From the sequence record PQ671644.1: a DNA stretch of 64,000 nucleotides; one strand, 5' to 3'. Shown one piece after another: positions 53,070 through 54,188 of the stretch. Made by a program: the position numbers and the translations under genes. Source of the DNA: Escherichia phage DCP80. How positions within the stretch are numbered: the stretch's first letter is position 1; each line of letters opens with the position of its first letter. The notes beneath the pieces are model-generated. The model was not told the origin of the DNA, did no database searches, and worked only from the letters and a program-made list of their open reading frames with translations.

Positions 53070-53150
53070 AAGTAGTGTACATCCGAATTGACCGGGTGCA
53101 TAATGATTCCATACTGAGTTACACACTGAATCAAACAAAACTTTGGAGAA
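53070..53150 (+). promoter_or_regulatory. Early promoter cassette, family A
   Basis: GTGTAC 53075-53080, 18-nt spacer, CATAAT 53099-53104, ATTCCATACTGAGTTAC leader. Confidence 0.6.
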
Positions 53151-53155
53151 ATAAA

Positions 53156-53581
53156 ATGAACTTTCTGACCCTGACCTCTGCATTCTCTGTTACCCGCATC
53201 ACTAACAAAATGGTTGCTGACGAAGTATGTGAAATCTGCATTCGTGAAGATGCACTTATTCATCTGACTTCAACCCAGATTGTTGCCATCGCCAAGTCCC
53301 TTAATTCTGAACTGAAGGTAAACACCAAACAGTCAAAAGAATCTATCATTGAATTAATCCAAGCTGAAATGATTGAATTCCCAATTGAAGAAGTTAAAGA
53401 AGAAAAAATCCAGTCTAAATCTGGTAATGCTCGTGACATTTGCTTCCAGGCATTTGCAGAAATTGATATGAATGATAATGCAGCTCGTCGCGCTCTGATT
53501 GATGTTCTGGTTACCACCCATGATATCAAAAAGACCGTTGTTCAGTCATATGCATCCAACTTCCGCAAAGCTCAAAAATAA
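53156..53581 (+). CDS. Hypothetical protein, member of VQSYASNF C-terminal motif family
   Basis: 141 aa; C-terminus NAARRALIDVLVTTHDIKKTVVQSYASNFRKAQK. Confidence 0.5.
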   Translation: MNFLTLTSAFSVTRITNKMVADEVCEICIREDALIHLTSTQIVAIAKSLNSELKVNTKQSKESIIELIQAEMIEFPIEEVKEEKIQSKSGNARDICFQAFAEIDMNDNAARRALIDVLVTTHDIKKTVVQSYASNFRKAQK

Positions 53582-53589
53582 TTGAGAAA

Positions 53590-53660
53590 AGTGTTTTACT
53601 TCCAGGTGGGATAGTGTATAATTATCCCATACTGAGTTACCAAATAAACAAACGGGATAA
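53590..53660 (+). promoter_or_regulatory. Early promoter cassette, family A
   Basis: TTTTAC 53594-53599, 17-nt spacer, TATAAT 53617-53622, TATCCCATACTGAGTTACC leader. Confidence 0.6.
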
Positions 53661-53664
53661 TAAA

Positions 53665-54108
53665 ATGAAAACTTCAAAACTGGTTAAGTATGTTAAACTG
53701 GCATTAAACAACTCTTCTGAAGCTGAAGCACAATCCGCTGCACGTATGTTCTTCAAACGTCTGACAGCTGAAGGTATTTCATTTAACCCGGCAGTATTTG
53801 GTATCACTCGTGGCGAAGCTGCTAAACTGGCAACACTGGCAGGTAAAATTTTTAAAGGTCTGAATGATGGACAGGTTAAACCAGAAGTTAAACCTACTCC
53901 TAAATCTGAACCAAAAGCTGAGCGTAAGGCACCTAAACGCTCCGGTATGAGCAACAAAGATTTATGCTATGATATGTTCAAAACTGTCAATATGTCTAAT
54001 GGTGCCGCTCGTAGGGCTGTTATTGATATGATTGTGCGTGAGTTTGGATTCAACAAAGCATCAGTTCAGTCTTATGCTTCCAACTTCCGCAAAGAATTTG
54101 AAATTTAA
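53665..54108 (+). CDS. Hypothetical protein, member of VQSYASNF C-terminal motif family
   Basis: 147 aa; C-terminus GAARRAVIDMIVREFGFNKASVQSYASNFRKEFEI. Confidence 0.5.
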   Translation: MKTSKLVKYVKLALNNSSEAEAQSAARMFFKRLTAEGISFNPAVFGITRGEAAKLATLAGKIFKGLNDGQVKPEVKPTPKSEPKAERKAPKRSGMSNKDLCYDMFKTVNMSNGAARRAVIDMIVREFGFNKASVQSYASNFRKEFEI

Positions 54109-54114
54109 TTAAAA

Positions 54115-54188
54115 AGGGGGTATACAAGCCCCCTGCTTTAAGGCATAATGATTCCATACTGAGTTACACAATAAAACACTGGAGAATA
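54115..54188 (+). promoter_or_regulatory. Early promoter cassette, family A, with stem-loop over the -35 box
   Basis: GGGGG-TATACAAG-CCCCC stem-loop 54116-54133; GTATAC 54120-54125, 18-nt spacer, CATAAT 54144-54149. Confidence 0.6.

Follow-up and report, generated by a model that had tools for sequence, protein, structure and literature searches.

The early genes of T4-type phages are read from promoters of a characteristic build. The T4 early promoter has GTTTAC at -36 to -31, separated by 17-18 nt from a -10 box resembling TATAAT, an A-rich tract at -40 to -44 and a C-rich segment at -3 to -1 (PMC1524935), and such promoters have been catalogued for T4 and predicted in RB69 and others (PMC2988021; PMC1524935). 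Promoter-early stem-loop (PeSL) cassettes, first defined in phi1 and RB49 and later also described for T4/PST and KVP40/nt-1 (Arbiol et al., 2010, PMC2839356; Comeau et al., 2014, PMC4122927), are composites of an AT-rich tract, a -35 and a -10 box, a stem-loop in one of five positions, a Shine-Dalgarno (SD) sequence and an ATG (PMC2839356, PMC4122927). Their promoter and terminator activities and recombination between the -10 box and the SD or ATG have been demonstrated, mini-circles arising from PeSL-PeSL recombination have been shown experimentally in RB49 and phi1, and the stem-loop placed before lacZ lowered expression like a strong terminator (PMC2839356). Here we describe repeated promoter cassettes upstream of small early open reading frames (ORFs) in a stretch of 64,000 nucleotides (nt) from Escherichia phage DCP80 (record PQ671644.1; hereafter the window), including those in the interval 53070-54188, and compare them with these systems.

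Two other features of T-even early genes are relevant. In T-even phages, the genes for internal proteins (IP) have conserved promoter and leader elements on their flanks (Repoila et al., 1994, cited in PMC2839356), and the strong cleavage consensus of the phage endoribonuclease RegB with S1, GG*AGRAYARAA, lies in the translation-initiation regions of T4 early genes (Durand et al., 2006, reviewed in PMC3014915).

The cassettes are most probably the promoters from which a T-even phage (genus Gaprivervirus) transcribes its immediate-early genes, built as compact expression cassettes and serving secondarily as sites of exchange. The original prediction, of early promoters of the T4 kind that are joined to conserved leaders and precede small early ORFs, survives in its core, although its division of the leaders into two families and its emphasis on shuffling need qualification. 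The feature is real, well defined and of a known kind (T4 early promoters and PeSLs), and it is extended here to another genus, for the early promoters of which we found no description in the open-access literature. It leaves the current picture of T-even gene expression and of PeSL-mediated plasticity unchanged, and adds to it a RegB site that travels with the cassette and a contrast in structure between a cassette's own transcript and RNA reading through it. Promoter activity, start site, termination and RegB cleavage are assigned to the cassettes by analogy with T4, phi1 and RB49, and are worded accordingly below.

Source DNA and scope of comparisons

The window is matched best by Escherichia phage 212 and next best by Shigella phage SP18, T4-type coliphages of the genus Gaprivervirus. 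When compared by blastn with the complete phage 212 genome, the window proves to be a patchwork of 3-5 kb Gaprivervirus pieces from scattered genome positions and in both orientations, with 91-100% identity to phage 212, joined by 15 runs of N (at 2052, 7307, 12026, 16527, 24921, 29045, 33152, 36994, 40718, 44126, 47536, 50944, 54357, 57667 and 60916). Because the window is composite, the order and strand of the copies within it carry no positional information. Native context was taken from the whole genomes of phage 212 (record PQ765507.1) and Yersinia phage vB_YenM_P8 (P8; PP693301.1), and genome-wide counts refer to the set of about 35 cassettes in the 171-kb phage 212 genome. The interval 53070-54188 itself belongs to a single native stretch, window 51003-54357, which is 100% identical to phage 212 138502-141856.

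Anatomy of the cassettes

A profile hidden Markov model built from 13 copies recovered all 15 places at which at least 15 repeated promoter units had been claimed, with E values from 1e-17 to 5e-5: on the plus strand at 16808, 17403, 37133, 40496, 50096, 51156, 51490, 53064, 53583 and 54109, and on the minus strand at 24692, 57246, 58228, 60908 and 62321. The repeated units measure 70-110 nt. The bare skeleton GTKTAC-N18-YATAAT occurs 16 times in the window at no more than one mismatch against 1.9 expected, a count reached in none of 100 shuffles. The core of the family A leader, ATTCCATACTGAGTTAC, is matched at up to three mismatches at eight places (16850, 17439, 24650(-), 37172, 53106, 53624, 54151 and 58186(-)) against 0.25 expected, and the family B core at five against none expected.

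In the aligned copies an A-rich UP tract (AAAAAGTA) precedes the -35 box, GTGTAC or GTTTAC, which is followed by an 18-nt gap, (C/T)ATAAT and a 6-nt C-rich discriminator ending in CC or CCC; in the sigma-70 register this is a -35 hexamer TGTACA with a 17-bp spacer. Downstream of the discriminator come an unstructured leader of 12-45 nt, a GGAG or GAGG SD sequence, an A-rich spacer and an ATG. In all 15 window copies the SD and ATG of a co-oriented ORF (59-248 aa; two of the starts were set by hand) lie 26-51 nt past the end of the -10 box. If transcription starts, as at T4-type promoters generally, at the A seven nt after the -10 box, the RNA would begin with AUACUGAGUUAC in family A or with AUCAACUACUGAGGAG in family B. 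The leader first proposed is indeed conserved, but on that start site its first six nt (GATTCC or TATCCC) would be untranscribed discriminator. Host sigma-70 RNA polymerase would recognise the UP tract, the T4-type -35 box and (C/T)ATAAT and start at this A, about 7 nt downstream, and the short unstructured 5' untranslated region (UTR) leading to the SD, A-rich spacer and ATG would allow the small early ORF to be translated at once.

This is the sequence of a T4-type early promoter in its -35 box, spacing, -10 box and A-rich tract, and the same layout is found in T4 itself. The likeness includes the UP tract, the GTTTAC-like -35 box, TATAAT and the C-rich -3 to -1 segment, as well as placement upstream of orthologues of the T4 early genes alc, ndd, srd, motB, sp and imm, with some promoters being positional orthologues. 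It differs from T4 in that the third -35 position is G and not T in most copies (GTGTAC), and in that copy-to-copy identity past the -10 box is much stronger here than in the third of T4 that was examined. The profile search of the intact phage 212 genome found roughly 35 cassettes, all of them on the strand of the early genes and none on the late-gene strand. They point in the same direction as the genes that they precede, among which are alc, ndd, srd, motB, sp, imm and many small hypothetical ORFs. Pfam matches among ten downstream ORFs were confined to Alc and Ndd. The aligned -35 region of no copy contains TGCTT, as in the MotA box of MotA-dependent middle promoters ((a/t)(a/t)(a/t)TGCTTtA, centred at -30 in place of the -35 box), and a search of the whole window with Rfam at gathering thresholds gave no match at the cassettes.

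Short multi-copy repeats in a patchwork window might also be read as a non-autonomous mobile element resembling a miniature inverted-repeat transposable element, or as an artefact of the composite. We regard this as next to impossible: the same copies stand in intact complete genomes, all are co-oriented with genes, and they have no terminal inverted repeats and no target duplications and interrupt no ORF. As immediate-early promoters, the cassettes should be of use in annotation, since they flag the immediate-early transcription units in phages of the SP18/VR7 type. These phages are phage-therapy candidates, and in their records the ORFs downstream are mostly entered as hypothetical.

A predicted RegB site as a 3' module

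The conserved 3' end of the cassette, GGAGAATAAAATG, fits the RegB consensus exactly. In phage 212 the exact consensus, for which 0.5 occurrences per strand would be expected, is found ten times on the early strand and never on the other. Every one of the ten is at a ribosome-binding site (RBS), and eight of them are inside cassettes. When the documented G/U variant at the fourth position is allowed, 11 of the 35 cassettes match perfectly and 21 are within one mismatch. The window holds five exact sites (16880-16890, 17464-17474, 51548-51558, 54181-54191 with the sequence GGAGAATAAAA, and 58148-58138 on the minus strand), all of them in cassettes. Folding predicts the GGA to be unpaired, the minimum free energy of the 5' UTR of the cassette's own transcript being near 0 and its mean RBS unpaired probability 0.61, and a RegB endoribonuclease is annotated in the records of phage 212 and P8.

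Like the T4 RegB/S1 sites, then, GGAGAAUAAAA is an exact fit that is intergenic, lies at the SD sequence of early genes and is predicted to be unpaired in RNA. Unlike those, this predicted site is embedded in a repeated cassette and so is copied along with the promoter. Since the consensus forms the 3' end of the leader, part of the conservation is explained by function rather than mobility. By analogy with T4, phage RegB should cut and inactivate the cassette mRNAs a few minutes after synthesis wherever the copy carries a perfect or near-perfect site, as many do, so that the unit would encode fast-on expression, from a strong promoter and an open leader, followed by programmed inactivation. 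The cassettes would in this way predict which mRNAs RegB should inactivate.

Stem-loops in and around the promoter

Most copies have one GC-rich stem-loop within or next to the promoter (12 of the 15 in the window and about 28 of the 35 in phage 212). In some copies it is a hairpin that lies upstream and has a T run behind it (GGACCCTTCGGGGTCC TTTTTT, for instance); in others the loop contains the -35 box (AAGGGG TGTACAA GCCCCTT), the stem is a palindrome separating the two boxes, or its arms bracket the -10 box. The -35 box had been reported inside a GGGG..CCCC stem in several copies, and this holds for three copies of the window (50105, 54120 and 57235(-)). The -10 box is commonly bracketed: a stem of at least 8 bp encloses it in 16 of the 35 phage 212 promoters, where 1.6 would be expected and none of 300 spacer shuffles gave more than 5. 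The stem sequences vary from promoter to promoter while pairing is kept. At the closely related promoters of the motB type, where the differences are compensatory, the arms are GGGACC/GGTCCC in T4, GGGGTC/GACCCC in the phage 212 orthologue and GGGAGC/GCTCCC in a paralogue at phage 212 position 72424. In T4, a stem of 13 bp also surrounds the -10 box of the cef promoter.

The resemblance to the PeSL cassettes of T4-type hyperplastic regions, which the original prediction had pointed out, extends to every defining feature that can be seen in the sequence of the unit. The cassettes are repeated intergenic composites with a stable stem-loop, all five published stem-loop positions are represented (upstream, around the -35 box, between the boxes, around the -10 box and just past it), crossovers fall between the -10 box and the SD or ATG, and the copies adjoin variable small ORFs. 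There are also differences. The promoter is of the T4 type (GTGTAC/GTTTAC), whereas that of RB49 and phi1 is a near-perfect sigma-70 consensus; the stems described in T4/PST are weaker and upstream, whereas GC-rich stems here commonly enclose the -10 or -35 box; and the unit here includes the highly conserved A-type leader module and a consensus RegB site.

Folding of the 35 phage 212 promoters shows that the 5' UTRs made from the cassettes' own promoters (median 25 nt) are less structured than shuffles (mean z +0.43), whereas adding 45 nt of upstream sequence yields strong structure (mean z -2.3, p about 1e-8). As the start site comes after the 5' arm, the stem would form only in RNA reading through from an upstream promoter. 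In such RNA the mean RBS unpaired probability falls from 0.61 to 0.48. By analogy with the PeSLs of phi1 and RB49, the stem-loop would most likely act in read-through RNA as a terminator or attenuator, or as a stabilising 3' end, insulating each small transcription unit from the next.

At T4 genes e, soc and 49, a hairpin in read-through RNA masks the RBS. A general masking of this kind was considered for the cassettes and rejected, as a clear drop is confined to a few promoters (see below); since the RBS is mostly not hidden, a role as attenuator, terminator or RNA end fits better than translational masking. Individual promoters of the masking type can nevertheless be picked out: the stem around the -10 box is 13-15 bp long at phage 212 position 43032 and at about 6594 in T4, and in the former the SD lies within the 3' arm (ATCTCCAGT..ACTGGAGAT), with an RBS unpaired probability predicted to fall from 0.63 to 0.07 in read-through RNA and an RBS predicted to be free in the promoter's own transcript.

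Leader types and their distribution

Both leader families originally distinguished are real, but they are better described as a graded series, to which a third type is to be added. The copy upstream of ndd that had been left unassigned is present and belongs to this third type, GACCCCACTGGAG. The leaders of phage 212 comprise about 12 of the A type, about 19 of the graded B series, where ACUGAGGAG doubles as the SD sequence, and about 4 of the third type (GACCCCACUGGAG). A and B leaders both contain CCAU..ACUGAG, and an A/B hybrid stands at phage 212 position 62474.

By blastn with 80-nt cassettes, A cassettes occur at 6-9 and B cassettes at 3-6 places per genome in 34-37 records, essentially all of them Gaprivervirus. 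A genus-specificity of the B leader, which these figures might suggest, was withdrawn, as 80-nt blastn proved too insensitive and direct inspection found B-like leaders in T4: ATCAACTACTGA or CTACTGAGGA occurs at the promoters upstream of cef, imm.1, sp and motB.2. A pattern scan of IMG/VR for the B leader returned more than 120 raw loci, to be read against about 100 expected by chance for 15 specified bases; 17 were left when a T4-type -35 box was required, on T4-like, JS98-like and Gaprivervirus contigs. With the same filter, A-type units were found in Gaprivervirus genomes and Morganella phage MP1 only. Judged by these scans, the A-type leader is the lineage-specific one.

Orthologous promoters of T4 and phage 212 give a mixed pattern. 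At sp the leader is kept while the spacer has completely diverged, and at motB the entire promoter is conserved almost base for base. At srd the gene-proximal half of the leader is common to both phages and the promoter-proximal half is of the A type in phage 212 only, and at 55.6 the leader is of the B type in phage 212 only. Such a mixture suggests that, besides being inherited vertically, modules have been exchanged or homogenised within the genus.

Exchange at the cassettes

The relatives were expected to differ in the ORFs flanked by cassettes, and they do: five of them differ in ORF content in the hyperplastic region from the tRNA genes to e.6, where P8 has an extra ORF between duplicated copies of one leader of about 50 nt. 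At the position corresponding to window 53594 (phage 212 position 141081), eight genomes share 94-100% identity in the upstream sequence and in the promoter itself, and downstream of it they are either 96-100% identical or unrelated; in EAWsc9 the leader at this locus is a mosaic, in which a 3' half from one group is followed by the ORF of the other. At phage 212 position 42346 a single promoter and leader stand before at least three unrelated ORFs. Clean exchange loci number four, with crossovers within the leader or at the ATG. The P8 insertion, the EAWsc9 leader and the loci with the same promoter and different ORFs place crossovers between the -10 box and the SD or ATG of different copies, as in PeSLs. 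When phage 212 and P8 are compared over their whole genomes, a cassette lies at an edge of 11 of 36 and 9 of 31 non-syntenic segments, and two segments, phage 212 19627-20351 with two ORFs and P8 48077-48396, have in-register cassettes at both edges.

The IP locus beside the tRNA genes offers a further parallel. The cassettes at 51154 and 51488 of the window lie in this variable locus, and relatives carry different IP genes between conserved cassettes there, as described for the T-even IP elements; the type of cassette found here, in contrast, is used genome-wide and not at IP loci only.

With 40-100 nt of near-identical sequence in some 35 copies of one orientation, the cassettes most probably serve as sites of homologous exchange as well. 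Crossovers in the leader or at the ATG have placed one promoter before different ORFs and have led to insertion or deletion of ORFs flanked by cassettes, as an occasional by-product, while most cassettes stay in place when inherited. The loci with one promoter and unrelated ORFs show how small early genes, often concerned with host takeover or anti-defence, get swapped.

Points against this reading and alternative explanations

Several observations weigh against the reading of the cassettes as T4-type early promoters with stem-loops acting in RNA and a secondary role in exchange. As to the promoter, a generic sigma-70 scan scores the cassettes at 9 of 12 and finds 34 sites against 26 expected, much like background, so that the case for a promoter rests on the extended conservation of the T4 type. 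As to the stems, most of those bracketing the -10 box have no U run behind them and hence are not canonical terminators, and masking of the RBS in read-through RNA amounts to a clear drop in just 6 of 35 promoters. The interior non-Watson-Crick pairs, 3 G.T against 0 A.C on the sense strand (p 0.25), are too few to decide between RNA and DNA as the level at which the stems act, and a less strict form of this comparison let in junk stems.

Another idea is that the inverted repeats work as DNA, forming a cruciform or hairpin at the -35 or -10 box that is a target of a structure-specific nuclease (endonuclease VII, for instance) or of replication slippage, and so making recombination hot spots. 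The repeats are perfect or near-perfect over 8-14 bp, endonuclease VII is encoded by these phages, and the authors of the PeSL work cite T4 deletions ending at GGGC/GCCC inverted repeats. We think it improbable all the same: a stem with a T run behind it is the classic form of a terminator in RNA, the stem-loop before lacZ behaved as one (PMC2839356), and the G.T pairs lean, though not significantly, towards RNA.

As to the leader, conservation of its promoter-proximal part (AUACUGAGUUAC or AUCAACUACUGA) is left over when promoter, RegB site, stem and exchange have been accounted for. [quoted passage not shown] B-like leaders are kept at T4 and phage 212 orthologues (sp, motB.2 and the promoter just past gene 43) where the spacers between -35 and -10 have completely diverged, the motif is multi-copy in several T-even lineages, and the mechanism of early promoter shut-off has been described as not completely understood (PMC3014915). 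Against these points stand the absence of an Rfam family and of a stable structure, as well as the many early promoters in both T4 and phage 212 that have no conserved promoter-proximal leader motif, and cassette spread alone or generic needs such as promoter escape and S1 binding could give the same conservation; we rate such a signal as rather unlikely. More speculative still is the narrower proposal that the segment from +1 to about +12 (AUCAACUACUGA in T4 and Gaprivervirus, with AUACUGAGUUAC as a lineage-specific variant) has a signalling function of its own. A factor timing early expression could recognise it, either in the early mRNA as this is being made or in the DNA that is transcribed first, and could act for instance in T-even early promoter shut-off or in a 5'-end-dependent decay step. 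If this were true, the spread of the leader among non-orthologous promoters would be selected and not incidental.

As to exchange, the breakpoint enrichment known for PeSLs does not reach significance here: in a test on one genome pair, cassette junctions compared with other early-strand junctions gave odds ratios of 1.8-2.9 (p 0.09-0.25). Moreover, 29 of the 35 cassettes have kept their place between phage 212 and P8, with an identity close to that of their flanks, which speaks against a general role in shuffling. The cassettes may accordingly be promoters and nothing else, their likeness being due to functional constraint and the breakpoints being surviving rearrangements at gene boundaries, with the cassettes themselves not recombinogenic. 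The edges of variable segments at phage 212 cassettes, which lie 10 times on the right and twice on the left and thus usually at the upstream edge of a cassette, are also what is expected if a promoter stays with its downstream gene. We consider this the strongest of the alternatives and yet doubtful. It does not explain crossovers inside the leader, as in the EAWsc9 mosaic and in the P8 insertion between duplicated 50-nt leaders, nor the identity between non-orthologous copies, which reaches 88% over 97 nt with the spacer included (the copies at 58136 and 53064), nor the srd promoter, where an A-type module replaces just the promoter-proximal half of a leader otherwise common to T4, and the mini-circles of RB49 and phi1 speak against it as well. 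The earlier suggestion that they probably mediate shuffling is to be narrowed to single loci with crossovers in the leader or at the ATG: exchange at the cassettes is real but occasional, and their main job is gene expression.

Individual cassettes in the window

The interval 53070-54188 contains A-type cassettes on the plus strand. The first (53063-53158; E 3.5e-16) consists of the UP tract, GTGTAC (53075), 18 nt, CATAAT, GATTCC and the leader ATACTGAGTTACACACTGAATCAAACAAAACTTTGGAGAAATAAA, and a hairpin resembling an intrinsic terminator (53003-53036; GCCCC..GGGGC followed by a T run) lies about 40 nt upstream of its promoter (phage 212 position 140562). Behind it, an ORF of 141 aa without a Pfam match starts with the ATG at 53156. 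The second (53582-53667) has a TTTTAC -35 box, a 17-nt gap and TATAAT, with the stem TGGGATA..TATCCCA bracketing the -10 box and a RegB consensus of the U variant, GGATAATAAAA, and precedes an ORF of 147 aa (ATG 53665) that is a paralogue of the 141-aa ORF. The third (54108-54193; ATG 54191) has its -35 box, GTATAC, in the loop of AGGGGG..CCCCCT. The ORFs at 53156-53581 and 53665-54108 (+) are tandem paralogues that share the C-terminal ..VQSYASNFRK, and neither has a Pfam match; the repeat unit runs from the last 45 nt or so of coding sequence into the next cassette, with about 75% identity over 135 nt.

Other A-type cassettes are scattered over the window. That at 16782-16892 (+; ATG 16890) includes an upstream terminator, GGACCCTTCGGGGTCC with a T run, and that at 17396-17476 (+; ATG 17474) has the stem AGTATGGG(GATA)..CCCATACT bracketing the -10 box. 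The cassette at 58136-58254 (-; ATG 58138) likewise includes an upstream terminator (AGGACCCTTCGGGGTCCT and a T run). At 37130-37220 (+) the A-type variant ATTCCGTACTGAGTTAT lies upstream of the srd homologue; the gene-proximal half of its leader, CGTCCGTAAGATGAGAAAAAT, is the one common to T4 srd. The cassette at 24612-24693 (-; GTTTAC -35 box, ATG 24614), which corresponds to phage 212 position 104324, is on the early-gene strand, yet it lies in the capsid-gene region, between the genes for the major capsid and capsid vertex proteins.

Among the B-type cassettes, that at 40493-40568 (+) lies downstream of dexA and is orthologous to the T4 motB.2 promoter, with a similar leader. The one at 50093-50168 (+), with its -35 box in the loop of AAGGGG..CCCCTT, would drive the alc homologue (PF17527). 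At 51154-51224 (+; phage 212 position 138653) an ATGTAC -35 box is combined with a 13-bp stem, TGATGGGATAGTT..AATTATCCCATCA, bracketing the -10 box, and the ORF behind it starts with MKTYQEFI; EFI or EFL is found in the paralogous genes, which carry the annotation of internal head proteins in related phages. The cassette at 51488-51560 (+; ATG 51558) has the stem GATGGGATAA..TTATCCCATC around the -10 box. On the minus strand, the cassette at 57172-57247 (ATG 57174), with its -35 box in the loop of AAAGGGG..CCCCTTT, precedes a homologue of T4 55.6, the T4 leader of which is unrelated, and that at 62253-62353 (GTTTAC, TACTAT; ATG 62255) includes an upstream terminator (GGTCTGCCTTCGGGTGGACC and a T run). 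The third-type cassette at 60825-60913 (-), with the stem TGGGGTCA..TGACCCCA bracketing its -10 box, would drive ndd (PF06591).

Early-type promoters that had not been listed before were also found. Those at 16393-16464 (+; GTTTAC-18-CATAAT, 16405) and 19994-20065 (+; GTTTAC-18-TATAAT, 20006; leader GAATTCCTACTTTATGAGGAG) are perfect matches to the skeleton upstream of ORFs, with leaders unrelated to the families. Further candidates of the T4 early type are at 43214 (+) and 56528 (-), the latter within coding sequence and with a T4 counterpart at about T4 position 41261.

Annotation and neighbouring features

Product names look shifted or wrong in places in both genome records used for native context: in that of phage 212 an ORF of 2256 nt is labelled thymidylate synthase, and in that of P8 many small ORFs are labelled thioredoxin or as structural proteins. 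Hence the annotations of the cassette-driven ORFs are not to be trusted. A group I intron without an ORF (Rfam RF00028, 74 bits) lies at 47688-47971 (+); its host gene is nrdB-like by position and length, although the phage 212 labels there look shifted by one gene, and phage 212 lacks about 313 bp at the intron site. Downstream of the tRNA cluster, the non-coding segment 52880-53045 (+) folds well (z -3.7). ARAGORN finds no tRNA and Rfam no family in it, and it has a tRNA-like T-arm (CCGGGTTCGAATCCCGG) and a 3' end made up of a GC stem followed by a T run; it may correspond to the small stable RNAs encoded beside the T4 tRNA genes.

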